From an uncultured Gammaproteobacteria bacterium (GTDB lineage Bacteria > Patescibacteriota > Patescibacteriia > UBA1558 > GWA2-36-10), in contig CAZWYP010000005.1 in assembly GCA_964638415.1 (NCBI GenBank), forward strand, positions 4,121-68,120: a stretch of 64,000 nt of DNA, read 5' to 3'. Made by a program: the position numbers and the translations under genes. Below are positions 33,290 to 60,950 of the stretch, piece after piece (position 1 is the stretch's first letter; the number at the start of each line of letters is the position of its first letter). The notes under the pieces were generated by a model that was not told the DNA's origin, made no database searches, and saw only the letters and a list, made by a program, of their open reading frames with translations.

Positions 33290-33292
33290 AAT

Positions 33293-33778: not shown

Positions 33779-33780
33779 AG

Positions 33781-35258: not shown

Positions 35259-35761
35259 TATTGATTGGGATAATTTTCTACGCTGGCGTCAAAATAATCT
35301 AATTGCACACCAGACTGTTTAAACATCGCTTCCGACTCTTCACCGGCATGGTATTTTTTCTCGCAAACCACTCGCTTGATGCCGGAGTTAATGATCAGCA
35401 TGGCGCAAACGCGGCAAGGAGTCATCTTGCAATATAAAGTACCTTCATTGATGGAAATTCCTAAGTGAGCAGCCTGGACAATGGCATTCTGCTCAGCATG
35501 AATGGTACGTACGCAATGCGAGCTGGTGTGTCCGTCCTCATGAGTCACTGTTTTCATCTGGTGGCCGACTTCATCGCAATGAGCAAAACCTTTGGGTGAA
35601 CCGACATAACCAGTAACCACAATCTGCTTGTCTCGGGCAATAACGCAGCCGGAACGGCCGCGGTCGCAAGTGGCGCGCTTAGCTACGGCATTAGCCACTT
35701 CCATAAAATATTCATCCCAGGAGGGACGAATGTATTTTTCTTCCGCCATAAATTTATGCAT
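35258..35761 (-). CDS. dCMP deaminase (ComEB-like)
   Basis: Zn-dependent deaminase motifs HAEQNAI and CKMTPCRVCA. Confidence 0.8.
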   Translation of the reverse strand: MHKFMAEEKYIRPSWDEYFMEVANAVAKRATCDRGRSGCVIARDKQIVVTGYVGSPKGFAHCDEVGHQMKTVTHEDGHTSSHCVRTIHAEQNAIVQAAHLGISINEGTLYCKMTPCRVCAMLIINSGIKRVVCEKKYHAGEESEAMFKQSGVQLDYFDASVENYPNQ

Positions 35762-41408: not shown

Positions 41409-41855
41409 ATGCCTATTCTAGCCCACAACAAGCGAGCAACCTTTGACTATCAGATTGAAGAAGAATTTGAAGCTGGCTTAAAATTGTCCGGGGCGGAAGT
41501 AAAAGCCGCTAAATTAGGACATATTAGCCTACAAGGCAGTTTTGTGACTATCCGGCATAATGAAGCCTGGTTAAGAAAAATGCATATTTCCCCTTATCAG
41601 AAAGCTAGTGGACAGCAAGTAGGCTATGAACCGGAACATGATCGCAAGCTACTGCTAAAGAAGAAAGAAATAGCCCATTTAACAGGAAAAATCCACGAAA
41701 AAGGCTTGACAGTAATACCCATTTCAGTGTATACTACGCGCAGGTTAATTAAAGTAAAAATTGCTTTAGTTAAGCCGACTAAGAAGTTTGACAAGCGTCA
41801 AATCATTAAAAAACGCGATTTAGATCGCGAAATAGCTCGCCATTTGAAAAATTAA
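41409..41855 (+). CDS. smpB: SsrA-binding protein
   Basis: SmpB N-terminus (KRATFDYQIEEEFEAGLKLSGAEVK) and basic C-terminal tail. Confidence 0.9.
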   Translation: MPILAHNKRATFDYQIEEEFEAGLKLSGAEVKAAKLGHISLQGSFVTIRHNEAWLRKMHISPYQKASGQQVGYEPEHDRKLLLKKKEIAHLTGKIHEKGLTVIPISVYTTRRLIKVKIALVKPTKKFDKRQIIKKRDLDREIARHLKN

Positions 41856-41882: not shown

Positions 41883-42264
41883 GGGGATGTTTTATCTTCG
41901 CTGGCAATTAAAATAATAAATCGCAAGCTGAGCCGATCACCTCATAAAACTGGTCATTAAATTAAGTGCCAAAAACTTAGTTGCGAAAGCCAAAGAACTT
42001 TTCCAGGTTCCTCAACTTTCACCAGTCTTAGCTTAAGTGCTCAAGACCGTCTCTTAAGGCTTGTTTGGGGCTTTAAGTCAGGCGTCATTTTCCAAACTTA
42101 GAAATGCTTAATGGCCGGTGAGCATTTCAAAAACTTTCGGCCTGCAATTAGTAGTGTTTTGCTGGTTTTAGAGCTATTAATCAAAGTGGAAAAAACCAAC
42201 TAAGCTTGTAGAAGTTTGTTAGGCTAATTGTTAGACAGGGGCGCAATCCCCCTCATCTCCACCA
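41883..42264 (+). ncRNA. ssrA: tmRNA (SsrA), ~382 nt
   Basis: 5' GGGGAUG pairs with 3' CAUCUCC-A-CCA (acceptor stem, discriminator, CCA). T-arm-like AGGGG-cgcaauc-CCCCU sits just upstream of the 3' end. An in-frame tag-like reading frame ...AKAKELFQVPQLSPVLA-TAA lies at ~41968-42036. Directly downstream of smpB, and followed by a hairpin at ~42272-42288. Confidence 0.7.
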
Positions 42265-44199: not shown

Positions 44200-44829
44200 A
44201 TGAAAAGACTAATAATAATTAGCTTTATTAGCATTATCCTTACTGGCTGTTTCAACCAAAATAGCCAAGTAAACACCAATATCGAATCCAATGACTTCAG
44301 CAATAACCCTACGGATAATGCCCCTATAGAGTCATTTCACCCTCCCCTAACTCTGGTCAAGGAAAGAATAACCAAAAAACCTTTTGGCTTGAAAGTGTCG
44401 CCACAGAATTCTCCTGTAAAGCCGGAAATTTTTTCCGGCTATCATACAGGCACGGACTTTGAAATTTTCCCGGAAGAAGCAGATTTAGCCACTCCTGTTT
44501 CAGCCATTTGCGATGGTAAAATAATCTCCGCTAGAAATGCCAGTGGCTATGGCGGCGTAGTAATACAATCCTGTGAATATAACAATGAACCAATTACTGT
44601 TGTTTACGGACATTTGTCTTTAAGCAGTCTGCTTAAAGAAGCTGGCGAGGATATTAAAGCTGGAGAATATTTAGCTAATTTAGGTGATGGCTATTCTCTA
44701 GAAACAGATAATGAAAGAAAACATCTGCACTTAGGCATTCACTTAGGAACAGAGATAAATATCAAAGGCTATGTGCAGAATGAATCGGAGTTATCTCAAT
44801 GGCTGGATTACCAAAAAATAAACAATTAA
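44200..44829 (+). CDS. M23-family metallopeptidase lipoprotein (LytM-like)
   Basis: Lipobox ILTGC. M23 motifs HTGTDFE...(D) and VYGHLS. Confidence 0.7.
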   Translation: MKRLIIISFISIILTGCFNQNSQVNTNIESNDFSNNPTDNAPIESFHPPLTLVKERITKKPFGLKVSPQNSPVKPEIFSGYHTGTDFEIFPEEADLATPVSAICDGKIISARNASGYGGVVIQSCEYNNEPITVVYGHLSLSSLLKEAGEDIKAGEYLANLGDGYSLETDNERKHLHLGIHLGTEINIKGYVQNESELSQWLDYQKINN

Positions 44830-44866
44830 AAAATCACCACATAATAGCGGTGATTTTTTAATTAGC

Positions 44867-45169: not shown

Positions 45170-46120
45170 CTAAGGTATTAATTCACTCCAAGCGCAATTA
45201 GCTATTTCCTGATTACAATTATACCTAACTTTTCTGGTAGCATTAGTGGTAGAAGCTGTAGCCTGGATATTGGAATTGCATTGCACTTCTTCGCCACAAC
45301 CTTCTGGCCAAGGGGTAATCACTAAATTAGCGTCATCAAAGCTGAAATCCATTGCCGATTGTACCGTATGCCTTTCCGCAAAATAAATCTCTACAATATT
45401 ATCTCCAGCTCGCAAAAACAAAGTTCCAACTTCCGGAGTATTAGCATGGGTACCACTATTATTCACCACCACAATGCCATTAACTAAAATCCAACTATCA
45501 TCATCCGAAGCCAGACTAAAGCCATAATTGCCGTCAATAGGAGCTGTCACTCTAGCCCGCCAATGCATACCAAAATGGTAATCATGATTATACCCCTCCA
45601 TATTTTCCCAAACCGTGCCGTCATACGGATACCAAGAGCTGCCAAATAATAAATCCGCATCAATCTGCTCGTGGGTTTTGTAAATATCATCATACCAATC
45701 ATGCTCAGTAGGTGTTGGTGTGGGGCCGGGATAAGGATTAACTTCCATATCTGGATGGGTGACGGAATAATTAAACCATTCTCCCCACCAGCCGGAATCC
45801 GGAACATACTGACACTCGGGAATCGGCTGGCAAGCACCTTCTTCTTCAACAAATTCGCTACTGACCGGAATACTATCCACGCTTAAAATTGGAAAGGTAT
45901 AATTATTATGATCTCTTCTTAACTGCATTAAAGACTCTCCTACTCCCGATTCAGCCGCATAAAAACTCTGGATAGAATCAGAAAAAGAATTAAAGCTTTC
46001 TTTGGTATTTAAAAAAATATGCATCAAGGACAACACAATGGATAAAATCCCTCCGGTAATTAACAAGGCGGCAACCAAAACCGCTGCTCCTGATTCAGAT
46101 TGTCTTATTCGTTTAATCAT
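45170..46120 (-). CDS. prepilin-like minor pilin (GspK/PilX-like, lacking Glu+5) fused to a C-terminal PA14 domain
   Basis: N-terminal MIKRIRQSESG|AAVLVAALLITGG hydrophobic helix without Glu at +5. C-terminal FSLASDDDSWILVNGIVVVNNSGTH...GDNIVEIYFAE matches the PA14 core. Last gene of the pilus operon (ATGA overlap). Confidence 0.5.
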   Translation of the reverse strand: MIKRIRQSESGAAVLVAALLITGGILSIVLSLMHIFLNTKESFNSFSDSIQSFYAAESGVGESLMQLRRDHNNYTFPILSVDSIPVSSEFVEEEGACQPIPECQYVPDSGWWGEWFNYSVTHPDMEVNPYPGPTPTPTEHDWYDDIYKTHEQIDADLLFGSSWYPYDGTVWENMEGYNHDYHFGMHWRARVTAPIDGNYGFSLASDDDSWILVNGIVVVNNSGTHANTPEVGTLFLRAGDNIVEIYFAERHTVQSAMDFSFDDANLVITPWPEGCGEEVQCNSNIQATASTTNATRKVRYNCNQEIANCAWSELIP

Positions 46121-46650
46121 CTTAAGCTAAAAAATACTTCAAATTGCTTTTGGTAATACCCATAAAATTCTTCGGGCTGTCCGACGGTTAAAGTAAAGTT
46201 AATCAAAACCCCCTGATTGGCATTGCCTTCACTATCGGCAACAGTGTCAATAGCAAAGTCAGAGACTGCTACCTGATCATTATTTAAAACTACTGGCTCC
46301 GCGGTAGACTGTTCAGGAAATCCAGTACCAGTATCTTGGACCTCCTGGTAAACTAAATCATTATTCTCTAATTTTAAACTAAAACGCTTATCTGGAATCT
46401 GGTAAAAATGCCAACCTTCTGGTGCCGGGGAAACATCATCTATTAAATCAACGTTATGCACTTTATTGTTCAATAAATTAATAATAAACCGGCCATTGCT
46501 CTGAACTAGATCGGCAGCACGGAATTGACGTCGGGTATTGAAAACATTAATAGCTACCGAAGCGATTACCAAAAGTAATAAGCCCATGATCATAAGATAC
46601 AAGAGTGTTTCTAATAAAGAAAATCCTTGTTGTCTATTTATCTTCATCAT
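46117..46650 (-). CDS. type IV prepilin-like minor pilin / pseudopilin
   Basis: Class III signal MMKINRQQG|FSLLETL with Glu+5; 177 aa. Confidence 0.55.
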   Translation of the reverse strand: MMKINRQQGFSLLETLLYLMIMGLLLLVIASVAINVFNTRRQFRAADLVQSNGRFIINLLNNKVHNVDLIDDVSPAPEGWHFYQIPDKRFSLKLENNDLVYQEVQDTGTGFPEQSTAEPVVLNNDQVAVSDFAIDTVADSEGNANQGVLINFTLTVGQPEEFYGYYQKQFEVFFSLR

Positions 46651-48548
46651 GGATAAGTTGAATAGCTAATAGTTACCTCTTCCAATACCGGGCCTTGCAA
46701 TTGGGAAGCGCTGCTTAAATACAAACGATAACGGAAATACCTCTGATTCAAATGATAATTATAGTTTATATACTCTTGAGCTGCGGTAGTGTAATAGGTG
46801 CCACTGGAAGCATCTGGACCGACAAAATTCCAAGGACCATTGGCATTATTGCTGGTTGCTAATTGGAATTTAATCTGCGTATTCAATGGTTGTGATCCGC
46901 TCCAAGCAATCCAATTATACGCCACATCACTTGCGCCAGTATCAAAAGTGGATGATTCTAAAATACCGGCATCAGTATAGCCGCAATCAGCTACTTCCGT
47001 AGAGATAATAAAGAATTCCCTGGAATTTCCAGTAGTTGCGGCATAAATAATGGAACAATTAGCTGACATGCCTTGAATATAACCTTCTAAATCAAAGCTG
47101 GAAATTTCATTAATCGTCGCTGGATAACTACCGTCCACTACTACTAATTCTTTATTGCCAATTTCTGCTCCTAATAATACATAAGGGCCCACGACCGCCA
47201 AGGAATAAATTCTGGCGCCGGCATTATAGTCTCCTAATAATAACGGGCTAGCTGGCGCGGAAATATCCAAAATGAATAATTCTGAGCCAGAACTGTTGTT
47301 CTGGGTCGCAAAATAAGCACGGTTACCTCTAACCGCCACGTCTGTTCCTAACAAAGATCCCGGCAGATTATATTCACCAATCTGATTCAAATTAGCTGGG
47401 TTTGTAACCTGAAAAATCTGCAATTCTTTAGTACTGTTTTCCGTAGCAACATACAGATTATCCTCTGATAAATAAATCTCCCGAGCGGTATTATCTGTGC
47501 CAATGCTATCTAAATACTGTACATTCTCCGGATCAGTGATGCTAAAAGAGTAAATATAGCTGCCGCGAGCTAAATAAACTTCAGTTTCACTGACTGCTAC
47601 ATCATAAGCGTTAGTAGTGCCAGATAAGTTATAAGTTTCAACAATACTTGGTCCATAAGGATTACTAATATCTACCACTGTTAGTTCGGCATTATCATGG
47701 TAAGTGGATAAATAAGCATAATCATCTTTAACTACTACCGCCGTAACCGTAGCTCCGATATTCAAAGAAGAAAGCTGCTGGGGGCTATATTTATTACTGA
47801 CGTCTAGAATAAAAAATTCCGCTCCGGAAGAATTATTCTGTGTGACTAAATAAGCTTTATTGTTTATAGCAAAGACATCGTTCTGGTCATAAGTGCCGGG
47901 AGTGTCAAAGTAAGCAGTGGTGGTTGCTTGGTTCCAATTCAAAAATCCTGATTGCAAAGTAGCAATACCGGCAGTAGAAATATCAATACCGGAATCACTG
48001 CTGAAATATCTGGTCTCATCTACAAAAGCCGCTTGGCCGTCACCTCCCGACCAATCATTCTGGCTCTGCCGGCTGGCCTGCCATTGATAAAGATAAGTTT
48101 CCAATGTTTGAGTCTGGTTATTGCCTAAAATACTGGGCCAGCTGACGGAAATAGTAATTTGCTTGGTGTCCGGATCCCAAAATCCTGTTTCAGATATTTC
48201 CCCATGCACTTGACCATTGGTAGAGTTTTCCCTATAAACATCGGAAATAGTGACAGTTCTGGTGTACTTATTCTCCAGCAATTCACTGCCGGCAGACAAT
48301 TCCCACTGCTCACCATTTAAAACTAAATGGTAATCTGCCGGAATTAATTCATCCCATGATAAGAGTTTGACTGCTTCCATGGCATTAGCCGCATAAACTA
48401 AGGCCATCCCCTTTTCTTCATTGTAACGCCGCAGCTTATTATTCACCGAAGTTAAATTAAAAATCAGCACCACTATTACGGAAATAAAAGTGATCGCTAC
48501 CATCAATTCAACCAAAGAAAAGCCTTTTTGATTTTTAATAAATAACAT
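46647..48548 (-). CDS. giant pilin-like protein: prepilin N-terminus fused to an LVIVD-repeat beta-propeller
   Basis: Class III signal MLFIKNQKG|FSLVELMVAI. At least five degenerate LVIVD-type repeats (e.g. AYLVTQNNSSGAEFFILDVSNKYSPQQL, AYFATQNNSSGSELFILDISAPASPLLL, LLGAEIGNKELVVVDGSYPATINEI). Confidence 0.55.
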   Translation of the reverse strand: MLFIKNQKGFSLVELMVAITFISVIVVLIFNLTSVNNKLRRYNEEKGMALVYAANAMEAVKLLSWDELIPADYHLVLNGEQWELSAGSELLENKYTRTVTISDVYRENSTNGQVHGEISETGFWDPDTKQITISVSWPSILGNNQTQTLETYLYQWQASRQSQNDWSGGDGQAAFVDETRYFSSDSGIDISTAGIATLQSGFLNWNQATTTAYFDTPGTYDQNDVFAINNKAYLVTQNNSSGAEFFILDVSNKYSPQQLSSLNIGATVTAVVVKDDYAYLSTYHDNAELTVVDISNPYGPSIVETYNLSGTTNAYDVAVSETEVYLARGSYIYSFSITDPENVQYLDSIGTDNTAREIYLSEDNLYVATENSTKELQIFQVTNPANLNQIGEYNLPGSLLGTDVAVRGNRAYFATQNNSSGSELFILDISAPASPLLLGDYNAGARIYSLAVVGPYVLLGAEIGNKELVVVDGSYPATINEISSFDLEGYIQGMSANCSIIYAATTGNSREFFIISTEVADCGYTDAGILESSTFDTGASDVAYNWIAWSGSQPLNTQIKFQLATSNNANGPWNFVGPDASSGTYYTTAAQEYINYNYHLNQRYFRYRLYLSSASQLQGPVLEEVTISYSTYP

Positions 48549-48550
48549 GC

Positions 48551-49024
48551 TTAATCTATTCTTCCTGAAGATAATATTTGTAAAGACTGGTTAACTTCTG
48601 AATTCTGGTCATAAATCATCTGCACTGTGCCGGTATTGTAGGTCTGGCCGGTGAATTTAATAAACACTACATCACTGCCCAAACCGCCAACGCCGTCGGA
48701 TACAGTGGTGCTGGCATTTAAAATCTCAATACCAGATAACTCTTTAATAATATTTAGGGGATCTTCTTCGTTATAGAAACTTCCAGAAAACAAAACATAA
48801 CGCTTGTCTTCCAAGTGCACTCCCCAGTTATTATTATTAGCCGCTGCGGTAGCCAATTGCTGTGCTCTTAACAAAGTGCTTTTTAACTCTTCTTTACCGT
48901 TAATTAACAATACATGGTGCCGCCAATTAATATATCCAGTAACGCCAATGGAAAAAACAATGGCCACAATTGCCAATACCATAGTTATTTCCACTAAAGT
49001 TACTCCTCCTTGGGATTTAATCAT
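48551..49024 (-). CDS. GspH/FimT-like minor pseudopilin
   Basis: MIKSQGG|VTLVEITMVLAIVAIV prepilin-type N-terminus (Val at +1, Glu at +5); 157 aa. Confidence 0.5.
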   Translation of the reverse strand: MIKSQGGVTLVEITMVLAIVAIVFSIGVTGYINWRHHVLLINGKEELKSTLLRAQQLATAAANNNNWGVHLEDKRYVLFSGSFYNEEDPLNIIKELSGIEILNASTTVSDGVGGLGSDVVFIKFTGQTYNTGTVQMIYDQNSEVNQSLQILSSGRID

Positions 49025-50266
49025 TTAATAAACTCCATAACTATTAGTCAGCTCATACATTGGACTAATCACCGACAGGGCAATAAAAGCTACAGCTACA
49101 CCAACTAGAATCAATAAGACCGGCTCCAAAATGGTAGATAGATTATTCAATACATTATTGACCCGCTCTTCATAAAATTCAGCTAGCTTGGTGAGAATAT
49201 TCTCCAATTCTCCGGTACTTTCCCCTACTTGTACTAATTGCACTGCCAGCGAAGGAAAAAGATCTGACCTTTCCCGCATAGCTTTTTCCAAGGATACTCC
49301 TTTTTGCAATTCTTCAGACATCGCTAAAGTCTGTTTGCGAAATTTTAAATTGCTTAAGGTTTTAGCCACAATATCCAGAGCCTGGACAATAGATAGTCCT
49401 GAAGCTAATAAAGCATGTAAATTACCGGAAAATCTGGTTAAAGATAGTTCTTTGACAATCTTACCGACAAAAGGCAATTTAAGCCAAAGCCAGCTTAAAA
49501 AATACTTGGGCTTAGGAAATTTAAAAATTATCCTCAAGGCGATGATTAAGATGATTAATGATCCTAAAGTATACCAACCATAAGTGGTCAGTAATGCATT
49601 CAACTGGTTAACAACCACTAAAATAATCGGCAATTTTACGCCAGCATCATTAAATAATCCTATTAACTGAGGGAATACCGACAAGGCTAAAAACAAGCTC
49701 ACACCAACTAAAGCAATTAAGACAATTACCGGGTACATCAAAGCACCAAAAACTTTGCTTTTTAATTTGCGTTGGGCTTTTAAAATAGCTGCTAAATTTC
49801 CGGCCGCTTCCGACAATTTACCGCTCTTTTCCCCTACTTCAATAGTAGCGATAATCATCTGGTTAAAAACTTTGGGATATTGCTCCATGCCCCTAGATAA
49901 TAATTGGCCATTCTCTACATATCTTTCCAAAAAATCAATAACATTAGAAAAATATTTATTCTTAATTTCTTTTTTCATGGTACTCAAAGCTGGAGTTAAA
50001 GATAACCCAGCTTTCAGCATGGTAGATAAATTGTCCAGAAATAAAATCTTTTCAGTGGCTTTAACACCACCCAAGGCTAACTTAGCTTTCAGTTTATTAA
50101 CCTTAGTCTTCTCCGGCAAAATCGGCTGAGCATCTTTTATTGGCTGCTGTCTGTTGGGACGATACAACTTAAAAGATGTCATTTGCTTTCTATTGGAAGA
50201 TAAAGTTATTGTCGGCTTAGCACTTGGGTCATCATAACTTTCATTCCTGCCTCCTAAATACTCCAT
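49025..50266 (-). CDS. pilC: type IV pilus assembly platform protein PilC (GspF family)
   Basis: Two GspF-type cytoplasmic repeats and three TM segments; conserved ...GESTGEL... motif. Confidence 0.85.
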   Translation of the reverse strand: MEYLGGRNESYDDPSAKPTITLSSNRKQMTSFKLYRPNRQQPIKDAQPILPEKTKVNKLKAKLALGGVKATEKILFLDNLSTMLKAGLSLTPALSTMKKEIKNKYFSNVIDFLERYVENGQLLSRGMEQYPKVFNQMIIATIEVGEKSGKLSEAAGNLAAILKAQRKLKSKVFGALMYPVIVLIALVGVSLFLALSVFPQLIGLFNDAGVKLPIILVVVNQLNALLTTYGWYTLGSLIILIIALRIIFKFPKPKYFLSWLWLKLPFVGKIVKELSLTRFSGNLHALLASGLSIVQALDIVAKTLSNLKFRKQTLAMSEELQKGVSLEKAMRERSDLFPSLAVQLVQVGESTGELENILTKLAEFYEERVNNVLNNLSTILEPVLLILVGVAVAFIALSVISPMYELTNSYGVY

Positions 50267-50267
50267 T

Positions 50268-51998
50268 TTATTCCCGCTTAATTCTCAGAACTTCTTCAAT
50301 CGTCGTTACTCCTAATAAAGCTTTCTGCATGCCATCTTCAAAAATGGTCACCATGCCCTGCTCTACCGCTGCTTTTTCTATCTCATTGGAAGAAGCATTT
50401 TTAATGATGCAATTCTGCACTGGCTCAGTATTTTCCATGATTTCAAAAACCGAAGTACGGCCGGCGTAACCGGAATTATGACAGCGTTCACAGCCCTTTC
50501 CCCGATAAAAAGTCAGTTCAGAGAATGAATTTACTTCTTGCTTGACTACTCCTAATTGCTTAAACCTATTAAGCATGTCATTGAGATTAAACTCCTTGCT
50601 TAAGCTCACTAATTGCTGCTCATTTAGATGGAAGCTTTCAATGCAGTCTAAGCAAATTTTCCTGACCAAACGCTGGGCAATTACCACATTCAAAGTACTA
50701 GCTACCAAAAACGGCTCAACTTCCATGTCCAATAATCGCGGGGGTGCGCCGGTAGCATTGTTGGTATGCAAAGTAGATAAAACCAAATGTCCAGTCAAAC
50801 CGGCCCGGACGGCAATCTGAGCAGTCTCTTTATCTCTAATTTCTCCAATCATAATAATATCCGGATCCTGGCGCAATAAAGATCTTAAACCAGTAGCAAA
50901 GTCGTAACCGGCTTTGACATTAACCTGAGTCTGGTTAATCCGACTAATACCGTATTCAATGGGATCCTCAATAGTAGAAATATTAACATCCTCAGTATTT
51001 AAAACATTTAAAATGGCGTACAAAGTGGTAGTCTTGCCAGAACCGGTCGGACCAGTGACTAAAATCATGCCAAAAGGCTTATCCAACTGACGCTTCATCA
51101 TCTCCATATTGCTGTCGGTAAAACCCAGATCTTCCAAAGTTAAATCATGCGATTCATCGGTCATTAAACGCATTACCACTTTCTCACCGTAAAAAGCCGG
51201 AATAACGGAAACACGAACCGATTCTTCTTCCCCCTCTATTTTAAAAGAAAATCTACCGTCTTGCGGTACGCGGTGCTCATCAATGCGTAGATTGGATAAA
51301 ATCTTAATTCTTGCCACTAAAGCATCATGAATCTCCAAGGGTAATTCCACCTTGTCATGCAAATCGCCGTCAATGCGGAATCTAACCACCACAGCATCCG
51401 GCAAAGCCTCCATGTGGATATCTGAAGCTAATTCAAAAACCGCTGCTTCTAGAATAGCATCCACAATCTTAATCACCGGCAATTCAATATCTACTGACTC
51501 CCCTTTTTCTTTGAGGATTTTATCGTTAATAATATTACTAAGCTCTTCCTTAATATCTTTTTCATAAAGATGGGCGCCGTAAATAAAATTCTTGTAGCTA
51601 GTGAGGAATATTTTTATTTTCTTACTAGTGGTTTTTTTAACCAAATCAACTTTAGTCACGCTTTTAGGACTAACAAAAGCTACAGACAAGGTGTTGCCAT
51701 CCAGCTCAAAAGGTATAGCCTGGGCTTCTCTGACTATTTTTTCCGGCAATTCATTCAATACTTCCGGCTTTAATTTACGCTTGCGTAAATTAACATAAGC
51801 AAATCCTAACTTATCCCCGATTAACTCATACAAGTATCGGTTATTAAAAAAACCCCGCTCAATCAAAATCTCTTCCACCCCCCGGCGGCGGCGATGAGCA
51901 TTCTCCGCTGCCTCTACCCAGTCTTTTTCCTTAATAACCTGAGTACTTAACAACAGCTGTTTTAACTCGTCTTGAGATATTGGTAATTTAGAAGGCAT
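50268..51998 (-). CDS. pilB: type IV pilus assembly ATPase PilB (GspE family)
   Basis: GSPII_E N-domain; Walker A GPTGSGKTTT, Asp box, His box, Walker B, and a C-terminal tetracysteine CLDC...CERC. Confidence 0.9.
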   Translation of the reverse strand: MPSKLPISQDELKQLLLSTQVIKEKDWVEAAENAHRRRRGVEEILIERGFFNNRYLYELIGDKLGFAYVNLRKRKLKPEVLNELPEKIVREAQAIPFELDGNTLSVAFVSPKSVTKVDLVKKTTSKKIKIFLTSYKNFIYGAHLYEKDIKEELSNIINDKILKEKGESVDIELPVIKIVDAILEAAVFELASDIHMEALPDAVVVRFRIDGDLHDKVELPLEIHDALVARIKILSNLRIDEHRVPQDGRFSFKIEGEEESVRVSVIPAFYGEKVVMRLMTDESHDLTLEDLGFTDSNMEMMKRQLDKPFGMILVTGPTGSGKTTTLYAILNVLNTEDVNISTIEDPIEYGISRINQTQVNVKAGYDFATGLRSLLRQDPDIIMIGEIRDKETAQIAVRAGLTGHLVLSTLHTNNATGAPPRLLDMEVEPFLVASTLNVVIAQRLVRKICLDCIESFHLNEQQLVSLSKEFNLNDMLNRFKQLGVVKQEVNSFSELTFYRGKGCERCHNSGYAGRTSVFEIMENTEPVQNCIIKNASSNEIEKAAVEQGMVTIFEDGMQKALLGVTTIEEVLRIKRE

Positions 51999-52069
51999 AA
52001 ATAAAAATAAAGTGGTAATTTACCACCTTATTATACCATAAATTAACAATTAAACAAAATAAAAAATGT

Positions 52070-52543: not shown

Positions 52544-53458
52544 TTAATTAGCTGTAAAATAAGCGCTTAAATAACTAGTAGTCTGATTTAAATCCGCTTT
52601 AAGTATTTTAGCAGAATTACTATGCTCAATAATCTGCAAATCCTGAGCTTGGCTTAACTCCATAATCTTTAGTAAAGCATTGAGCGAATCCGGAGAATCC
52701 AGATAGTCGCTGTTTAAATTACTAAGCAGTTGGTAGTCCTTGTTTTTAATCGCCGACAAGGTAATTTGATCATTCCTCTCCGCTTGCGACAAAGGCAGAT
52801 AATGGGATAGATCCAATGAATTAATCACTACCGTTCTCTCGTCAAGCCAAGGCAAAATTGCTGCCGCTAAAGAAAAAGATTTATCATTGGTCTGATGGGA
52901 AGTGAAAATAATCGGCGCTACTTTAGCTTGAGGAAAGTACTGCTTAATAAAAGGCAATAACACTGCTACTGAATGTTCTGGCTTAAAGTTGTCCAGATCA
53001 TAAGCAATAAAATCATCTTTAACCAACTGATCTAAAATTTCCTGATCCTGCTTAACTTCTCCTAAAAAAGTCTGCCAATTAACCGCAGCGGAAATAGCTG
53101 GTGCTTTTGCTAAATCCCGATGATTAGGGGCTAAAATAACAAAAGTATCTACTATCTGATTTTTAGATAAGGAAAGGAAAAAATCTGCCAGCAAATCACT
53201 GGCCAAATCATGGTGCGGCAAAATTGCCCCCATTACCCGTTGGCCATTATGGATATATTTTTCTCCCGCTTGAGCAAGAGACTGGTCAAATAAATAATTA
53301 TTGGTCTCAACTGTAATTACTGGGTAGCTTTCCTGACTAATACTGGTAAACGACTGGGTTTCCACTGACTTAAACATGGTGTAAATTAAAACCAGTCCAA
53401 CCGCTAAAATAATAGCGGCATTGAGTTTAAAAATGTGTCGGCTAAACCAATTCTTCAT
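52544..53458 (-). CDS. MEMO1-family (AmmeMemoRadiSam system protein B-like) protein with an N-terminal membrane anchor
   Basis: GAILPHHDLASDLLA, VILAPNHRDL, NSLDLSHY and IEHSNS match the MEMO1 pattern (IiPHAGy.ySG / iLgPsH / sSDLSHy / H). N-terminal TM helix. Its start overlaps the stop of the A2M-like gene by 1 nt. Confidence 0.5.
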   Translation of the reverse strand: MKNWFSRHIFKLNAAIILAVGLVLIYTMFKSVETQSFTSISQESYPVITVETNNYLFDQSLAQAGEKYIHNGQRVMGAILPHHDLASDLLADFFLSLSKNQIVDTFVILAPNHRDLAKAPAISAAVNWQTFLGEVKQDQEILDQLVKDDFIAYDLDNFKPEHSVAVLLPFIKQYFPQAKVAPIIFTSHQTNDKSFSLAAAILPWLDERTVVINSLDLSHYLPLSQAERNDQITLSAIKNKDYQLLSNLNSDYLDSPDSLNALLKIMELSQAQDLQIIEHSNSAKILKADLNQTTSYLSAYFTAN

Positions 53459-56400
53459 TATGGTTGAATGGTTACTTGCTGGCTATCGGCAAAATTCATA
53501 ATCTCCGGGACATTAAATGATTGGATGATAATCGGCTCAGCTTGGTAAGTCCCTGGATTGGTAATGCGGGCATAATAACTAAAGTAATCCTTTGCGCAGC
53601 GGGACTGTTTCCAATCTTTGCTGATACTGAACTTAACTTGCTGCCCCTCAATCTCATAAGGATAGTAATATCCGCAATCTACATAAGCCCCGCGATAATA
53701 CGGACGAGTAGTAACTTTCAAGCCGCTGGGCAGCAAGTCAATAATCTGGTATCTGCCCTGCAAAGCGCTGCTGGAAATAAAAGGATAAACCCTAACTTCT
53801 ACCAAATCACTTTCTTTAAAGCTACTAGTCTCTACGTCATTGACATAATATTTTCTGGCAATAGCGATATTGCGATCAACTGTCGCATCGCTAGCAGCTA
53901 ATGGTTTTTCGTAAGTACTTACCAAGCCAACTTCTCCCTCAATATTGCTGAATTTAATACTAGCTAATTCCTGAGGACTTACTTTAATTCTCCAGCTCCG
54001 GCCTTTATCTAAAGTCTGCTGATGCTCCTGCTCACCTACTTTAACCGTAAATTTAACTTCTCCTTCTCCTAAATTGGGCAGAGTATTAGCCACATAATGC
54101 AATTTTTCCAGATTAATCAATACCTCTTTAGTGCGGTTTTCTACAGTATACTGCCATAATGGCTCATGCAGTTTGTCATTCAAGCCACCGGCTAGAATTG
54201 CCGCTAAAGCAGTGACAGATAAAATATCGTCCATATCGCCGCCAGTATTTATTCGGGCATATTGCTCGCCATAATTTTCCCCATGTTTTTCTATTAACTC
54301 TAAATAAATACTCTTAGCCAGCTGATTATCCCCTAAACTCTGGGCACCTAAGGCAATATATAATTTCTCTTTAATGGTTAAATCCGGCAAAGCGGCAAAT
54401 TGCTGAAGAACCAAGAGAATCGGCTCATCTAAAGCTGCTAAGCCGGCCAGAGACATCACTACCTCTTCCTGGTTGGAATCCTCATTGTTCAACTTGCCGT
54501 AAAAATAATTAGCTAAACTAGTTTGATCAAATTTATCAGCGGCCACCATTGCTGTTCTGACGCTTAATTCCATTTCCGGATCGCTGTAAGGCAATAACGT
54601 GATGCCGCCGTTGTATTGGTATAATGATCCTTCAAATTCCGGCACATAAGTTTGGTCAGAAAAATAATCTTTAATCAACTGACTGCCAATAACTCTAGAG
54701 AACTTCTGATCAACCCGATCACCATAAGCCCAGGCTAAATGGGTTAAATAGCGATATAGGCGGCCGCGATTGCGATCAGAAAAAGTCAAAGTAGTAGCTG
54801 AATCCGAACTGCCTTTCACCTGCAACTCTGGAGATAAAATATAGTTTTCCTCCACTAATTTGCGCAAATGGGAATTAGTAACTAGAATCGGCAAATTAAC
54901 CGCATCCTGATATTCTCCAAATTCCACCCCATAGGTAAGATCATATTCTCCTAAAGACAATTGCGGTATATTAATATAACTTGGCTCGAAGGCCTTGCCG
55001 TCAACCGTAGTTTTATCCAAGCCTAAAGTGGCAGCGTCCAGACTAAATCTGACCTGATCGCCATTACGCAAGGCATCACCATAAGCCCGCAATTTAACCG
55101 TCGGCTGGTCAGCTGCCAGATACTCTTTAGCAAAGGTCCCTTCAACAAAAACCGGCAAGCTAACCATAATCTTACTGACTCCATCACCAGCATATAGATC
55201 TTTGGTAATTGCCTGGGCGGTTATCCTCCAGGAAGTAATATTATCCGGCACGGTAAAATTAACTGTCGCTTGTCCATTGCCGTCGGTAATCACTGAGGCA
55301 AATAAGGCATTGTCGGTAAAGTTGTCTCTAACTCCGCCACTTTTTTGGTTATGGACGTAAATACCGTCCGCTAAATAAGTATGATAATGCTTGGTCTGTA
55401 AATTATATACCTCCGCCACCTCTTCTGACTGCTCGATGCTGAAAATCTTAACTGGCTGACCATGATCATTCATCAGCCAATCGCCTACCGCTGCTTGGCC
55501 GATTGGCTGCCACTTATTATTCAATAATACTATATGCTCTGGCGTCACCTTCAATTGGTTGTTGATTATCAGATAACCGGAAACAACATGATAAAAGGTT
55601 TTTTCTACTTCTGTCGCCACTAATTTTCTTTCAAAGGGTGAAACAAAAGTCATTATCTGTTCACCAACAGCGATATCTTCAATATTCTTGGTAGAGCCAT
55701 CTGCCATAGTCACTTTAGTGCCAGCCAAGAAACAGCCACCTCCTTCCGCGCCCAAGCCAAAGTCTGCTAATGCTTCCAAACTTTCTGCCTTATTAGTGCG
55801 ATAAGAAGTAATTTCTCCTGAAGAGATATAGCCATTGTATAAGGTTTCCAAAGGATTAACATCGCCACCGTAACTGATATCATAATAGGCTTCATCTACT
55901 AAATTAACGTTAACACCAGCCGCTACCGGATTATTATTAAGATCGCTGACTTTAACCTGTAAGGTAACTTCTTCACCGGGCTTAAATTCTTCCTTATTAG
56001 CTTCTACTTCCACTTTTAACTCACGGTCGGAATATTTAAATTTAACAGCCGTACCGCCACTACCACCCCACCACCAATAATTTCCCTGGCTGCCGTCATG
56101 ATAAGACCGGCCATCAAACCAAACGCCTTTAACATAAACCACGGGTACATACTGAGCAGTAAAATCAAAACTGAATTCCGGCGCATTACTTAAACTATAA
56201 TCCAACAATCCTTGCTTGAGCTTGAAATACAAGTAATTTTTCTGATCGGATGTGGGTAATAATTCATCATTCTTCAAGAATTCGAATTCTACTGCTTCGC
56301 CTATAGAAAATTGCGAATTATCCCGTTTATCCTGGCTTTTCAACCTCAGCTGATAATAATCATAGCTGCCGCGGGAATCATAGCTACTGTTATAATAATA

Positions 56401-58875
56401 ACTGGTTAAATAATCATTCCTGCCCTGACCGTCGGAAACAATCACGTCTACCCGATAGCTTTTATCTTTCTCCACACTTAACCGATAACGATGCTCTCCC
56501 TGCTGATTGGAACTGCCGCTATAGGTGGTTAATTGCTTTTCTATGCGGTCATAGCGGTACTTCTTTCTAACTACTTTATTGATAAAATCATAATATTCCC
56601 CATCTTCTTTAGCCTCATAGCTAATTTCGGTAATCTTAGCAGAAATGGCTTTATTGACTGCCGGATCCCCTAAATAATCCTGGTAACCAGTAGCTTCCCC
56701 ATTATTAATTTTATCCAAATCAACATTATTCACCTTAGTTAAGATATCTACTGACACTGCACGACCAGCACTGTCTTCTTCATTCTCAAATTTAATCTGA
56801 CCAGCTATTTTAGGACCAAAAACTCTAACAGAAGCATAGGCGCTAATATCTGCCTCTTCGGATTTTACTGGATTAACATTAATGGAATAATATTGCGGAT
56901 AATCGCAGCCATAATAATCTCCGCTCTGCGGACAATCCTGGTATTGCGTTGGCAAGCTTAAATGCCCATTGCCAAAAATATCCGTCTTCAACTGGCCCTC
57001 TGGCTGTTCACTAGCCTGATACTTCAATTCTAAATTAGCTACCGGCGTTCCTTCAAAAAAATTAGCCTTAACATCTACCTTTACATCTTCACCGGCAAAT
57101 AAAGCGTTTTTCTCCGGCTTAGCTTCTATTTGGTAAGCTGGCTTAACATAGCGCTCTACTGTTAAATAATGAGTGCCAATTACTTCTTCTCCCAATAAAA
57201 TCTCCATACTATACCAGCCTGGCTCAACATTCTTAAGATCCAAACTACCGGAAAAAGTATTAGCTTCAGTTAATATTACCTGCGCTTGGGCGGTGGAAAT
57301 TCTTTCTAGATAATAATTATAATAGCTCTGGCCGTTAATTAACTTCACTGTCAATTCTTGGCCGGCGTTTATTTCTCCTGCTCGCGGCTTAACAAAGCCC
57401 CAAAAATTAACTTTATCGGTTGGCTGGTACATCGTTCGGTCGGTATAGAAATAAAACCAGTTATCCGGCCGAGTATAATCGTCCATTTGGAAAGAGACTG
57501 CCACTACATTAGTATAGCCGCCGCCGGTGATTTTAAGAAAATGGTAATTCCTTGACCAATCCTCATTTTGGTCAAAACCGGCGGCAGTATTCATAGTTGC
57601 CAAACCGTCATTGTTGGTATTCTGGATAATGCCTTTATCTACTGAGGTAACCTGCGCTTCGGCTATTGGTCCACCAGTATCCAGACTATTTACCCAGATC
57701 AAGGTATTGTTGGTGGTAATATCGGCATAGATTGCCAAATTATTTACCTGGAAAAAAGCCTGGCTGACAAAATCATCATACTTCATTTCAATCAGATAAA
57801 AACCATTGGGTAAAGTCTCGGGTAAAACCAGATATTTAGCATATTCATATTCTACCATCGGCAGATTATGCTCGCCTACCTTGGTTAAAGACTGCGGATT
57901 GTAATAGTAATTATCCCGGTGGTACCTGGCCCAATACGGCCATCTCTCTTTATCTTTAGCCGCTTCAATATACTGGTCAGCGCTGGCAAAAGCATAGACT
58001 GTTACCGGTACATTCTTGGATTCTTGGTTGTAATAGGCAGTTAAAGGAAATAGCGGCGGAGTATCCAAGGAAAATTCACTGAAACTCTCAGCAAAACCTA
58101 CCCGCCTATAATTACCCTGGCCATCTTCCGTATTAGCCGGCTCCGTCTCAAACCTAAAGATATGATCATTATTAAGCTTCAAATCACTGCCCTCTAAAGC
58201 AATACTTTTGTCCACCGTAACCTGGTAAATAGTGCCGTTTTGCAAACCGCCGCTGGGAACAAAAACCAAGGTTCTTTTATGCTTTTCATAACGCCCCTCT
58301 ATTGCCGGCTCAATTTTAATCTTGCCTTCGTAGTCAATAAAATTCTCATGGCTGAAAGTAATTTCAATACCGGTATTAACCGGCACATAAGAGCCTTTGT
58401 CTCTGGGTAGAGTGTTTAAAATCTTAAATTGATCCTTAACCTGAAAAGCCCAGGAATAATTGTATTTCTGCTCCTCACCCGCTTCATCCAGATAATTGGA
58501 GGTAATCTTCACCCGGTAAACTTTCTTTTGCTCCAAGGGATTTTTAGGAACTACTTCAAACTTATTCTGGTCAATGGTTTTAAAGTCAAAGTCAACTGTG
58601 GGCTCCAGGCTAATGTTAGAAGCTAATGCCTGAGGGTCCACCACATCCTTACTGGTAATAATAAAGGAGGTGGTATCTTCTACTCCAATACTGTCTGCTT
58701 TGGTAGGAATAATCTCAAAATTATCCTGAGCAAAAGCGGAGTTAATAAATAATTTAGTAAAATTGCGGGTATCCACTAAGCCCTGATCTTTAGGCCAAAG
58801 ATAAAAATAACCGGCTAATATTGCCACAATTAAAAAAATAGCAATAACGGGCACCCAGATTTTTGCTTTAAACAT
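53458..58875 (-). CDS. alpha-2-macroglobulin-family large surface protein (thioester-less) with an embedded Hint/BIL domain
   Basis: N-terminal TM anchor. Multiple Ig/MG-like beta domains. NFTVPDNITSWRITAQAIT...SLPVFVEGTFAKEYLAADQPTVKLRAYG aligns with the A2M/C3 MG6 signature ([10 protein letters not shown]...FFVELTMPYSVIRGE / DSITTWEIL). Helical TED-like C-terminal region without a CxEQ thioester. Confidence 0.6.
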   Translation of the reverse strand: MFKAKIWVPVIAIFLIVAILAGYFYLWPKDQGLVDTRNFTKLFINSAFAQDNFEIIPTKADSIGVEDTTSFIITSKDVVDPQALASNISLEPTVDFDFKTIDQNKFEVVPKNPLEQKKVYRVKITSNYLDEAGEEQKYNYSWAFQVKDQFKILNTLPRDKGSYVPVNTGIEITFSHENFIDYEGKIKIEPAIEGRYEKHKRTLVFVPSGGLQNGTIYQVTVDKSIALEGSDLKLNNDHIFRFETEPANTEDGQGNYRRVGFAESFSEFSLDTPPLFPLTAYYNQESKNVPVTVYAFASADQYIEAAKDKERWPYWARYHRDNYYYNPQSLTKVGEHNLPMVEYEYAKYLVLPETLPNGFYLIEMKYDDFVSQAFFQVNNLAIYADITTNNTLIWVNSLDTGGPIAEAQVTSVDKGIIQNTNNDGLATMNTAAGFDQNEDWSRNYHFLKITGGGYTNVVAVSFQMDDYTRPDNWFYFYTDRTMYQPTDKVNFWGFVKPRAGEINAGQELTVKLINGQSYYNYYLERISTAQAQVILTEANTFSGSLDLKNVEPGWYSMEILLGEEVIGTHYLTVERYVKPAYQIEAKPEKNALFAGEDVKVDVKANFFEGTPVANLELKYQASEQPEGQLKTDIFGNGHLSLPTQYQDCPQSGDYYGCDYPQYYSINVNPVKSEEADISAYASVRVFGPKIAGQIKFENEEDSAGRAVSVDILTKVNNVDLDKINNGEATGYQDYLGDPAVNKAISAKITEISYEAKEDGEYYDFINKVVRKKYRYDRIEKQLTTYSGSSNQQGEHRYRLSVEKDKSYRVDVIVSDGQGRNDYLTSYYYNSSYDSRGSYDYYQLRLKSQDKRDNSQFSIGEAVEFEFLKNDELLPTSDQKNYLYFKLKQGLLDYSLSNAPEFSFDFTAQYVPVVYVKGVWFDGRSYHDGSQGNYWWWGGSGGTAVKFKYSDRELKVEVEANKEEFKPGEEVTLQVKVSDLNNNPVAAGVNVNLVDEAYYDISYGGDVNPLETLYNGYISSGEITSYRTNKAESLEALADFGLGAEGGGCFLAGTKVTMADGSTKNIEDIAVGEQIMTFVSPFERKLVATEVEKTFYHVVSGYLIINNQLKVTPEHIVLLNNKWQPIGQAAVGDWLMNDHGQPVKIFSIEQSEEVAEVYNLQTKHYHTYLADGIYVHNQKSGGVRDNFTDNALFASVITDGNGQATVNFTVPDNITSWRITAQAITKDLYAGDGVSKIMVSLPVFVEGTFAKEYLAADQPTVKLRAYGDALRNGDQVRFSLDAATLGLDKTTVDGKAFEPSYINIPQLSLGEYDLTYGVEFGEYQDAVNLPILVTNSHLRKLVEENYILSPELQVKGSSDSATTLTFSDRNRGRLYRYLTHLAWAYGDRVDQKFSRVIGSQLIKDYFSDQTYVPEFEGSLYQYNGGITLLPYSDPEMELSVRTAMVAADKFDQTSLANYFYGKLNNEDSNQEEVVMSLAGLAALDEPILLVLQQFAALPDLTIKEKLYIALGAQSLGDNQLAKSIYLELIEKHGENYGEQYARINTGGDMDDILSVTALAAILAGGLNDKLHEPLWQYTVENRTKEVLINLEKLHYVANTLPNLGEGEVKFTVKVGEQEHQQTLDKGRSWRIKVSPQELASIKFSNIEGEVGLVSTYEKPLAASDATVDRNIAIARKYYVNDVETSSFKESDLVEVRVYPFISSSALQGRYQIIDLLPSGLKVTTRPYYRGAYVDCGYYYPYEIEGQQVKFSISKDWKQSRCAKDYFSYYARITNPGTYQAEPIIIQSFNVPEIMNFADSQQVTIQP
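55348..55734 (-). other. Hint (mini-intein-like / bacterial intein-like, BIL type A) domain, 129 aa, residues 1048-1176 of the A2M-like protein
   Basis: Intein block A CFLAGTKVTMADGS (Cys1 after GGG), block B LKVTPEHIVL (TxxH), blocks F/G VYNLQTKHYHTYLADGIYVHN ending in His-Asn. The +1 residue is Gln (HN|QKSGG), so canonical splicing is not possible. Confidence 0.65.
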
Positions 58876-60008: not shown

Positions 60009-60085
60009 TGGCGGGATGGAAGGGACTTGAACCCTCGACCTCCTGCGTGACAGGCAGGCGTTCTAACCAACTGAACTACCACCCC
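60009..60085 (-). tRNA. tRNA-Asp (GTC)
   Basis: Reverse complement reads GGGGTGGTAGTTCAGTTGGTTAGAACGCCTGCCTGTCACGCAGGAGGTCGAGGGTTCAAGTCCCTTCCATCCCGCCA. The acceptor stem GGGGTGG/CCATCCC pairs, the anticodon loop is CTGTCAC (GTC), the T-loop is GGTTCAAGTCC, and CCA is encoded. Confidence 0.9.
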
Positions 60086-60146: not shown

Positions 60147-60950
60147 TTAGGTTAAGAATATCGGCAACCAGTCTGGATGGTGGGCATTAATTAAGGCCAA
60201 AAACAAAATAAAATCCAAAGTTAAGTGAATGGTAATAATATAAAGCAATGACTCGGTCTTTTGAAAAATATAGCCTTGGATCAAAGCAAAAATGAGAATC
60301 ATAATCCAACCCCAGCCGGTAAACCCTAATTCATACAAAAAAGAAGTGAATAATATTGCCTGGAAAAAATTAGCAACATTAGCAGATAAATACTGCCGGA
60401 AAATGGCATAAACCGTGCCGACAAAAAACAACTCATCCCAAATACCTAAAGCATTGGTACCAATGAATAATTTGAAAATATTGTAAGCTCCAGGCTCCAC
60501 TGTCCAGTTCAAATAAGCGCCGGTATTTTCAAGGTAGAAAGGCAGCAGTAAATAAGCAATAATTGCGGTAAAAAATATATAAAATATTTCCGACTTAAAC
60601 CACTTCCGGCCATGATGCCAAGGAAAGCTAATGACCTTGCTGCGATAAATATACTTTACTACCAAATAAGGCAAGCTGACCGCCAAAATCAAAGCGATAC
60701 CCATCGCCAGCATGTGCTCTCCACTAGTATCAGTATTAATTTCCGTAACAGCCAATAAGGCTAAGGAAAAGTAAAGCAAAATTAAATACTTTCGGACTTC
60801 TCCCTTAGCTAATAGCAAAAAGACTAAGCCAAGCAGCCACAATATCCAACCGACTATTTTAATCTGTAAACCAATGAGCATTAAGCCGCTGACCACTAAC
60901 AATAGCAAGCCTAACCACTCGGTAAATTTTAATTTCTGTGCCGCCGCCAT
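60147..60950 (-). CDS. CPBP-family intramembrane metalloprotease (CAAX protease/Abi-like)
   Basis: Multi-TM protein with WDELFFVG (EExxxR-like), FTSFLYE and IHLTLDFILF (HxxxN/D-like) motifs. Confidence 0.5.
   Translation of the reverse strand: MAAAQKLKFTEWLGLLLLVVSGLMLIGLQIKIVGWILWLLGLVFLLLAKGEVRKYLILLYFSLALLAVTEINTDTSGEHMLAMGIALILAVSLPYLVVKYIYRSKVISFPWHHGRKWFKSEIFYIFFTAIIAYLLLPFYLENTGAYLNWTVEPGAYNIFKLFIGTNALGIWDELFFVGTVYAIFRQYLSANVANFFQAILFTSFLYELGFTGWGWIMILIFALIQGYIFQKTESLLYIITIHLTLDFILFLALINAHHPDWLPIFLT

Follow-up and report, generated by a model that had tools for sequence, protein, structure and literature searches.

Introduction

Modular pilins have been defined as a class (Raynaud et al., 2021, PMC8179133), with PilB (vWA) and PilC (lectin) of Streptococcus sanguinis acting alongside PilA, and the PilA-PilB-PilC tip model of S. 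sanguinis, a tip complex of glycan-binding modular minor pilins, has since been supported (Shahin et al., 2023, PMC9934059). Dataset S1 of the earlier study lists architectures joining N_methyl to LVIVD (IPR013211, 1-12 copies, including a Falkowbacteria protein) or to PA14 (IPR011658, nine proteins), and its Dataset S2 holds 76 PA14-PilY1 proteins with an N-terminal PA14 (PMC8179133). In TM7x (Nanosynbacter lyticus, Saccharibacteria) PilX2 was needed for efficient host binding, not for filament extrusion, with host-wall glycans being implicated (Grossman et al., 2024, PMC11623550). The K-type subunits GspK and CpaL have been described as self-complementing by way of their C-terminal strand, with a large module in the middle of the protein (Ellison et al., 2026, PMC12918778). 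The locus described here is a six-gene operon at positions 45170-51998 of a 64-kb stretch of DNA (contig CAZWYP010000005.1; the whole stretch of 64,000 nucleotides is called the window) from a bacterium of the Patescibacteria (Candidate Phyla Radiation, CPR). Its sequence and predicted structures argue, with a probability that we put at roughly 60%, for a core type IV pilus (T4P) assembly operon made up of PilB, PilC and a four-member H-I-J-K minor-pilin set (p157, p633, p177 and p316) that would display binding modules at the pilus tip in cis.

What is known of how ultra-small CPR bacteria locate and attach to partner cells comes largely from a few cultivated Saccharibacteria. The operon offers candidates in a different, uncultivated CPR lineage, in the form of a defined four-protein tip set with two recognizable binding domains.

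Gene content and organization of the operon

Six consecutive open reading frames lie on the minus strand in the order pilB-pilC-p157-p633-p177-p316 (Table 1), as had been reported in a preliminary description of this DNA drawn up from the sequence alone. The genes are tightly packed, with intergenic spacings along the operon of 1, 0, 2, -4 and -4 nucleotides (nt), the 1-nt spacer being that between pilB and pilC. The tight coupling noted in the preliminary description was therefore found, whereas the 4-nt ATGA overlaps that it placed at every junction are limited to two of the five (p633/p177 and p177/p316). A six-frame scan for the canonical prepilin motif G↓(F/V)(S/T)L(V/L)E (the arrow marking the cleavage site) returned the motifs of p157, p633 and p177 as the three instances across all 64 kb, with no major pilin in either the operon or the window, in agreement with the earlier reading of an operon lacking one. 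A terminator-like hairpin at 52006-52032 (minus strand) ends a few bases before the pilB start codon. In the promoter and terminator scan no terminator-like site was found immediately 3' of p316, a strong 18-bp hairpin followed by a T-run lying at 44823-44864 (minus strand), past a small DUF378 gene downstream of p316, and promoter calls stood at the level of shuffled sequence (20 found, 22.7 expected).

In a Pfam scan PilB matched T2SSE (436 bits) and MshEN (41.9 bits), with the MshEN domain at the N-terminus, a Walker A motif GPTGSGKT and a tetracysteine motif towards the C-terminus. Against equivalog models it scored 525 bits with PilB (TIGR02538, cut-off 676), 520 bits with GspE and 261 bits with ComGA (cut-off 300). 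PilC matched T2SSF over two stretches (186 bits), scoring 253 bits with GspF (cut-off 424) and 140 bits with ComGB (cut-off 240). With the superfamily domains passed and the equivalog cut-offs not reached, the sequence scores place the two proteins at the family level of type IV filament ATPases and platform proteins. A single PilB-type ATPase is present in the window together with an overlapping contig (L006, about 73 kb in all), and likewise only one PilC was seen.

The MshEN domain of PilB occupies window positions 51588-51806 (residues 65-137). MshEN is a family of cyclic di-GMP receptors in MshE- and PilB-type ATPases.

Table 1. Positions of the operon genes, their domains and the linked second pilin cluster (numbering of the window or its extension on L006).
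Feature	Position	Strand	Evidence or remark
PilB-type extension ATPase, 576 amino acids (aa)	50268..51998	(-)	T2SSE, MshEN
PilC/GspF-type platform protein, 413 aa	49025..50266	(-)	T2SSF
p157, putative H-type minor pilin (GspH/ComGD/FimU-like)	48551..49024	(-)	TIGR02532, sub-threshold class matches
p633, putative I-type modular minor pilin, whole gene	46647..48548	(-)	N_methyl, LVIVD, Beta_propel
p633 residues 1-165: class III signal KG↓FSLVELM, alpha1 helix 12-61, pilin beta-sheet 71-163	48054..48548	(-)	AlphaFold2 (AF2)
p633 residues 166-204: conserved linker, 'DWSGG' motif	47937..48053	(-)	invariant W166, G171, Q172
p633 residues 205-520: seven-bladed LVIVD beta-propeller	46989..47936	(-)	AF2, hidden Markov model (HMM)
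p633 residues 521-633: conserved C-terminal beta-sandwich, unannotated	46650..46988	(-)	AF2 strands 527-631
p177, J-position minor pilin	46117..46650	(-)	N_methyl, sub-threshold ComGF in orthologues
p316, putative K/PilX-type pilin-like protein without Glu5, PA14-bearing, whole gene	45170..46120	(-)	PA14
p316 residues ~108-265: PA14/fibro-slime-like domain; Pfam match 172-255	45326..45799	(-)	Foldseek, HMM
Second pilin cluster	L006:1872-7215 = window-equivalent 66205-71548	same strand as operon	just past window end
Three tandem pilins, 156, 140, 169 aa, N-terminus KGFTLIELLVVIAIIGILS	70127-71548	operon's strand	major-pilin candidates
PilD, 263 aa	68845-69636	operon's strand	A24_N_bact + Peptidase_A24
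Second, plain minor-pilin set, same gene order	~66205-68842	operon's strand	position-wise paralogy

The modular pilin p633

The leader of p633, MLFIKNQKG↓FSLVELM, is the textbook class III signal read in it before and is matched by N_methyl at 24.5 bits (cut-off 21.2), with G9, F10 and E14 (the glutamate at position +5 of the mature protein, Glu5) invariant among 30 homologues. Behind the pilin module the protein matches LVIVD (PF08309) at 72.2 bits (cut-off 20.2) and Beta_propel at 30.5 bits (cut-off 22.4). In the AF2 model, which has a predicted local distance difference test score (pLDDT) of 88 and a predicted template modelling score (pTM) of 0.74, 28 strands are arranged as seven four-stranded blades over residues 209-516, amending to seven the at least five LVIVD repeats counted originally. 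The likeness to PilY1 drawn at the same time did not hold, as no PilY1 match was obtained by HMM, including the IPR008707 propeller, or by structure, and p633 as a PilY1 homologue was rejected. In sequence as well as by Foldseek the propeller matches an enzyme most closely, the phosphotriesterase 5hrm of Sphingobium. The Glu conserved in each blade sits in the repeat motif and appears structural, and a catalytic role for it was set aside.

Conservation in p633 is highest over the C-terminal 113 residues, where mean pairwise identity is 63%, the propeller reaching 53% and the pilin module 48%. These residues yielded no Pfam, NCBIfam or Protein Data Bank (PDB) sequence match beyond chance antibody matches. 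When this domain alone was searched against 1.84 billion representatives it was found in 1970 clusters at E<=1e-3 and in 576 at E<=1e-10, nearly always at the extreme C-terminus of the carrier, with a consensus of about 110 aa (LxSSTFDTG...W.G..P.GT.V.FQ.A.SN...GPW...GPDGT..TYY...RYFRYK..L....P.V.DV..N.SP). The carriers include many CPR pilins and signal-peptide proteins, the domain being repeated in giant proteins of 1.5-4.4 thousand aa. A pilin-type N-terminus (G↓QxLxE) was found in half of the carriers sampled (20/40), most of these 20 also having the DWSGG linker.

What lies between pilin module and C-terminal domain in the carriers varies, from nothing (the 314-341-aa 'base' forms) to Laminin_G_3, an NHL propeller, an LVIVD propeller, DUF4082 or WxWND repeats. 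In relatives of p633 without a propeller the linker passes straight into the C-terminal domain, and in one diverged operon (L014) a scaffold of the same design holds Ig-like repeats as its insert. Because the insert varies between a shared pilin module and C-terminal domain, p633 is, by sequence comparison, a member of a large module-swapping pilin family in which the propeller sits between linker and C-terminal domain. Tentatively, this could be extended to a 'cassette pilin' platform of Patescibacteria, a wider proposal that we regard as possible but rather doubtful. A constant scaffold of I-type pilin module, DWSGG linker and C-terminal beta-sandwich of about 110 aa would have binding modules (LVIVD or NHL propellers, ConA-like lectin domains, DUF4082, WxWND) swapped into two insertion sites and would be paired with a K-type subunit that has swappable modules of its own, here PA14, such that the combination of modules might set the range of partners or substrates. 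The C-terminal domain would then perhaps serve as a common ligand binder or as a docking piece onto the tip complex.

The PA14-bearing protein p316

The N-terminus of p316 reads SESG↓AAVLVAALL, with no Glu at +5, and no N_methyl match was found in it by the Pfam scan, nor one to T2SSK at E<=1. PilX_N gave no match in p316 itself and weak matches in 5 of 34 homologues (best E 0.0076). The first 78 aa align with a 285-aa protein of a second pilin cluster (see below) at E 2e-7, with the motif SFYxAESG in common, and that protein matches PilX_N (PF14341) at 31.2 bits (cut-off 25.5). The absence of Glu5 that had been noted for p316 is confirmed by direct reading.

PA14 (PF07691) is matched by p316 at 46.5 bits (cut-off 24) and by all members of its family (34/34), with Fibro_Slime at 32 bits falling below its cut-off of 45. 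In the AF2 model (pLDDT 75.5) a long N-terminal helix at residues 2-69 is followed by a few strands and a core rich in beta structure, and three further strands (280-315) lie at the C-terminus. Foldseek matched the model to the PA14 domains of Kluyveromyces marxianus beta-glucosidase (3ac0), Cea1A, Epa1A, Flo1, RsgI (6qe7) and the RTX adhesin MpIBP (6m8m) at E 3e-6 to 2e-4, the PDB entries being 3ac0, 5a3l, 4af9, 4lhn, 6qe7 and 6m8m. The boundaries in Table 1 are our own reading of the sequence and secondary structure. By these the PA14 domain, described previously as C-terminal, is genuine but is flanked by short beta segments and hence not strictly C-terminal. Both binding modules named in the preliminary description are therefore recognized by HMM and in the predicted folds, and its proposal that adhesin domains are covalently fused to minor pilins is supported to this extent for propeller and PA14 alike.

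The pair D207-D208, six Cys and the greater part of the final 17 residues do not vary in the p316 family. A profile of the family aligns with the PA14 domain of RsgI3 at 1.5e-5, with D207-D208 placed on its DDG; we take this position to be the site of the Ca2+-binding DcisD motif of yeast PA14 lectins, which have a second calcium-binding loop as well.

The small pilins and the minor-pilin classes

The two remaining pilins are small and plain. p157 starts with MIKSQGG↓VTLVEIT, has Glu5 and scores 19.8 bits with N_methyl, just under the Pfam cut-off of 21.2, and 19.4 bits with TIGR02532 (cut-off 16.3). p177 starts with MMKINRQQG↓FSLLETL, also has Glu5 and passes the same N_methyl cut-off with 24.8 bits. 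Models for pilin classes were matched below threshold throughout. For p157 these were PRK10506 (PpdA-like; 33.8 bits, cut-off 158), ComGD (20.5, cut-off 70) and GspH (18.6, cut-off 80), with ComGD and PRK10506 recurring in 7/7 orthologues and GspH in 6/7 (best E 7.8e-9). For p633 they were ComGE (24.8 bits over residues 5-58, cut-off 49), GspI (22.3 bits over residues 9-96, cut-off 44.35) and T2SSI (12.7, cut-off 25), and among its 30 homologues ComGE was found in 29, XpsI in 16 and GspI in 13. ComGF gave 17.8-19 bits for the operon proteins (cut-off 80), and among the orthologues of p177 it was matched in 5/6 (best E 1.8e-5), with no GspJ match in the family. The GspH/GspJ-like character attributed to the small pilins thus has sub-threshold matches behind it, to GspH for p157 and to ComGF for p177. 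The putative J-type class of p177 is based on its place in the gene order and on its resemblance to a 194-aa pilin of the second set (E 5e-8).

A set of four subunits of which the last alone is without Glu5 is the signature of an initiation complex (GspHIJK, FimU-PilVWX). The class matches, the gene order and the distribution of Glu5 together support, without proving, the assignment of the four proteins to an H-I-J-K (ComGD-E-F-G) set.

Prepilin peptidase, major-pilin candidates and a second minor-pilin set

Contig L006, which was compared with the window across 3000 bp of their overlap and showed no mismatch there, extends the sequence to about 73.4 kb. It contains a second pilin cluster (Table 1) made up of three tandem canonical pilins, a membrane protein of 142 aa, PilD and four plain minor-pilin genes, the last of them encoding the 285-aa PilX_N protein. 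PilD and the major-pilin candidates lie 2-7.5 kb past the window end, the 169-aa pilin scoring 35.5 bits with N_methyl. The preliminary description would have doubted that the N-terminal segments are cleavable prepilin signals had the genome lacked a prepilin peptidase; one is encoded on this overlapping contig. Of the further components that it had listed as to be located elsewhere, PilD and three candidates for the major pilin were thus identified, and pilT and pilM/N/O were not seen in the roughly 73 kb available. Its description of the operon as a self-contained tip module is not sustained, because the operon would depend on PilD and on major-pilin candidates that sit elsewhere, and it carries the only PilB and PilC seen in the roughly 73 kb.

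When the two minor-pilin sets were aligned position by position the first pair gave E 0.11, the second matched in the helix only and the third and fourth gave 5e-8 and 2e-7. The first gene of the second set starts MIKNQGG↓YTMFE, resembling the MIKSQGG↓VTLVE of p157. This second, plain set may prime the same machine for pili without binding modules; two reports on Myxococcus describe multiple minor-pilin/PilY1 sets (bioRxiv 10.1101/2021.07.28.454143; Treuner-Lange et al., 2020, PMC7541494).

An Rce1-like protease, Lgt and a DsbA/thioredoxin-like protein are encoded between the two pilin clusters (window 60147-62487, minus strand). A DsbA-type oxidoreductase would bear on the six invariant Cys of p316 and on the cysteines of the major-pilin candidates.

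Conservation and variation in relatives

The exact operon proteins are present in metagenome assemblies, with close homologues labelled Candidatus Komeilibacteria, Nomurabacteria, Parcubacteria or 'Patescibacteria group'. Full-length cluster representatives number about 60 for p633 (45-61% identity) and about 60 for p316 (48-70%). At least 16 pairs of p633 and p316 clusters have a longest contig of equal size in the match tables, which suggests that the two genes co-occur on the same contigs. The comparison covered 6-7 operons, the contig scan yielding at least two close loci plus distant ones. The six-gene order recurs in L007 (a contig of 842 kb), L010 and L011, where the neighbouring genes are unrelated, and L009, L012, L013 and L014 contain diverged variants of the operon.

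In the three loci with conserved order, the orthologues of p316 and p633 are 60-64% and 51-59% identical to their counterparts in the window, compared to 35-46% for p157 and 40-47% for p177 (about 35-49% for plain minor pilins). By mean pairwise identity the PA14 domain (68%) and the p633 C-terminal domain are likewise more conserved than the pilin modules, and these domains as fast-evolving determinants of specificity were rejected. The high conservation of the binding modules argues instead for a conserved ligand and makes a rapidly diversifying specificity determinant unlikely, such that the idea of a variable host-recognition determinant in the preliminary description is not favoured. Variation seems, from the sequences compared, to arise by whole-module swaps between lineages.

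Two further observations were made on gene content in relatives. In L008 (12472-13665) the p316 orthologue is 135 aa long and without PA14, only its first ~98 residues aligning, to p316 residues 1-96, and directly behind it, on the other strand, lies a phage-type integrase gene, an arrangement that points to disruption by a mobile element. In L009 (13752-14204) and L014 (10496-10945) a canonical pilin of 149-150 aa, scoring 37 bits with N_methyl in L009, follows the K-type gene, so that some relatives keep a major-pilin candidate inside the operon.

Proposed mechanism and alternative explanations

In the mechanism that we favour, PilD, encoded about 5 kb past the window end, would cleave the three Glu5-bearing prepilins p157, p633 and p177, which with p316 would join through their N-terminal helices on PilC as an initiation complex, the Glu5-less p316 probably being placed on top. 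PilB would then power polymerization below this complex of the major pilins, probably at least one of the three tandem pilins linked to pilD. The complex would end up at the filament tip, displaying PA14 and the propeller with its C-terminal domain, the most likely target being a glycan or some other ligand at the surface of a partner cell or of a substrate. Since the adhesin modules are fused in cis, no separate PilY1-type adhesin should be needed.

Several points weigh against this mechanism. Every sub-class match (GspH, GspI, ComGD/E/F and, for p316, PilX_N) lies below its curated cut-off, and profiles of p157 and p177, when searched among PDB sequences, aligned with various pilins over the N-terminal helix alone, with no H or J fold. 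Neither PilT nor PilM/N/O accompanies the operon in the DNA available. No solved structure offers a precedent for a bulky propeller on an I-type subunit, and a steric conflict with the K subunit could arise. Binding modules as highly conserved as these are also easier to reconcile with a common ligand than with recognition of a specific host.

An unlikely alternative is that the operon encodes a Com-like competence pseudopilus for DNA uptake, with tip modules that catch DNA or anchor a short fibre in the wall rather than adhering to a partner. The genes would then be equivalents of comGA, comGB and comGD to comGG, with comGC located elsewhere. A dependence on scavenged nucleotides and DNA is assumed for CPR bacteria. 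The operon matches the gene order of comG, and the class models recurring most often among the Glu5 pilins, all below threshold, are ComGD (7/7), ComGE (29/30) and ComGF (5/6), although such scores may merely reflect short pilins of the monoderm type. The ATPase scores far higher as PilB or GspE (525 and 520 bits) than as ComGA (261), and the platform protein scores higher with GspF (253) than with ComGB (140). Moreover the PA14 domains in solved structures are carbohydrate binders, and in TM7x the propeller-bearing pilus made no contribution to competence (PMC11623550).

It is quite unlikely that p633 and p316 are not filament subunits at all, their helix serving as a membrane anchor or a PilD-dependent export signal and their domains as static surface adhesins or enzymes. 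The frequent occurrence of the p633 C-terminal domain on ordinary signal-peptide and giant surface proteins (the other half of the carriers sampled, 20/40), the enzyme as closest match of the propeller and the lack of a recognizable N_methyl motif in p316 would be in keeping with such a role. Set against it are the tight packing and conserved order of the two genes with pilB, pilC and two plain minor pilins, the invariance of Glu5 in the p633 family, the initiation-complex signature of four subunits with the last alone lacking Glu5, and the per-blade Glu, which is conserved within the repeat motif and looks structural rather than catalytic.

That p157 is instead the major pilin of a separate, self-contained filament made by the operon, with the pilD-linked pilins belonging to another pilus, is very unlikely. 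In its favour, p157 directly follows pilC, where comG operons have their major pilin, and shows Glu5 and a length typical of pilins, and two distinct pili are made by TM7x (PMC11623550). Against it, the N_methyl score of p157 is 19.8 bits against the 35.5 of the canonical 169-aa pilin near pilD, its family matches GspH, ComGD and PpdA and not GspG, PilA or ComGC, a position-matched paralogue heads the second minor-pilin set, the canonical pilin added at the operon end in L009 and L014 suggests that the major pilin is a separate gene, and one PilB and one PilC were seen in the roughly 73 kb, and p157 was rejected as the major pilin.

Other genes in the window

Three genes upstream of pilB, past Memo and TspO, an 1805-aa alpha-2-macroglobulin-like surface protein is encoded (window 53458-58875, minus strand) with an embedded Hint/intein-like segment (GGCFLAGTKV...YVHNQ); its matches are to A2M_BRD and, weakly, A2M, with PT-HINT, Hom_end_hint and Vint all weak. 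A compact cluster for dTMP synthesis and nucleotide salvage (30982-35761, minus strand) comprises dCMP deaminase, a P-loop kinase, thymidylate synthase, dihydrofolate reductase, dUTPase, thymidine kinase and thymidylate kinase, and stands out because the nucleotide metabolism of this lineage is mostly characterized as poor. The gene for SmpB (41409-41855) adjoins a full-length transfer-messenger RNA (41883-42264, 113 bits), and a tRNA-Asp lies at 60009-60085.

Comparison with known systems

A limited literature search, which is no proof of absence, found no paper describing the six-gene operon. The modular-pilin concept and PilX2 of TM7x are already published and the advance is to that extent incremental. 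What is new is the conserved six-gene operon itself, the presence of modules on both its putative I-type and its putative K-type subunit, the combination of an LVIVD propeller with a canonical pilin that has Glu5, and the unannotated C-terminal domain with its proposed cassette scaffold.

The operon resembles comG (ComGA-GG) in having an ATPase and a platform protein followed by pilins, with best weak matches of p157, p633 and p177 to ComGD, ComGE and ComGF. It differs in that all scores, from ComGA and ComGB to the three pilins, stay below the cut-offs, no ComGC-type major pilin is present in the operon, the ATPase is nearer to PilB/GspE, and the ComG minor pilins are without adhesin modules.

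Like GspK of the type II secretion system, with its inserted domain, and CpaL/TadG of Tad systems, p316 combines the lack of Glu5 and a pilin-like helix with a large middle module and a conserved C-terminus with predicted strands. Unlike the alpha-domain of GspK or the middle region of CpaL, its insert is PA14. By analogy p316 would correspond to the self-complementing K-type subunits.

As in modular pilins generally, a functional module is grafted here on a pilin module in a proposed tip-located adhesion complex. The published census is of architectures only, treats LVIVD as of unknown function and does not describe the operon (PMC8179133). p316, with no N_methyl match, would escape it, and the C-terminal domain of p633 carries no signature.

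The pili of TM7x are likewise those of a CPR bacterium, and in them the largest minor pilins bear a grafted seven-bladed propeller (PilX2 of T4P-2) or a lectin-like beta-sandwich (PilX1 of T4P-1). PilX2, however, has RCC1 repeats on a pilin without a predicted PilD signal, whereas p633 is an LVIVD-bearing, putatively I-type Glu5 pilin with a canonical class III signal and an additional C-terminal domain. Propeller and PA14 moreover occur here in one operon, on two subunits of one minor-pilin set, and in a different lineage (relatives labelled Komeilibacteria, Nomurabacteria or Parcubacteria), the TM7x proteins being compared here by their published description.

In FimU-PilVWX with PilY1/PilC of type IVa pili, assembly is primed by four minor pilins, which then remain at the tip together with a propeller adhesin (PMC7541494, PMC12918778), an arrangement similar to that proposed here. 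PilY1 often has an N-terminal PA14, such that the same two types of module recur in p633 and p316, but PilY1 itself does not belong to the pilins and is attached to the K-type pilin through a C-terminal strand that it donates, in contrast to the present modules, which are covalent parts of two pilins. In this comparison the operon would represent the PilY1 logic of propeller and PA14 at the tip reached by fusion to pilins, and its widespread, unannotated C-terminal domain and module-swapping scaffold could guide the search for adhesins in CPR genomes.

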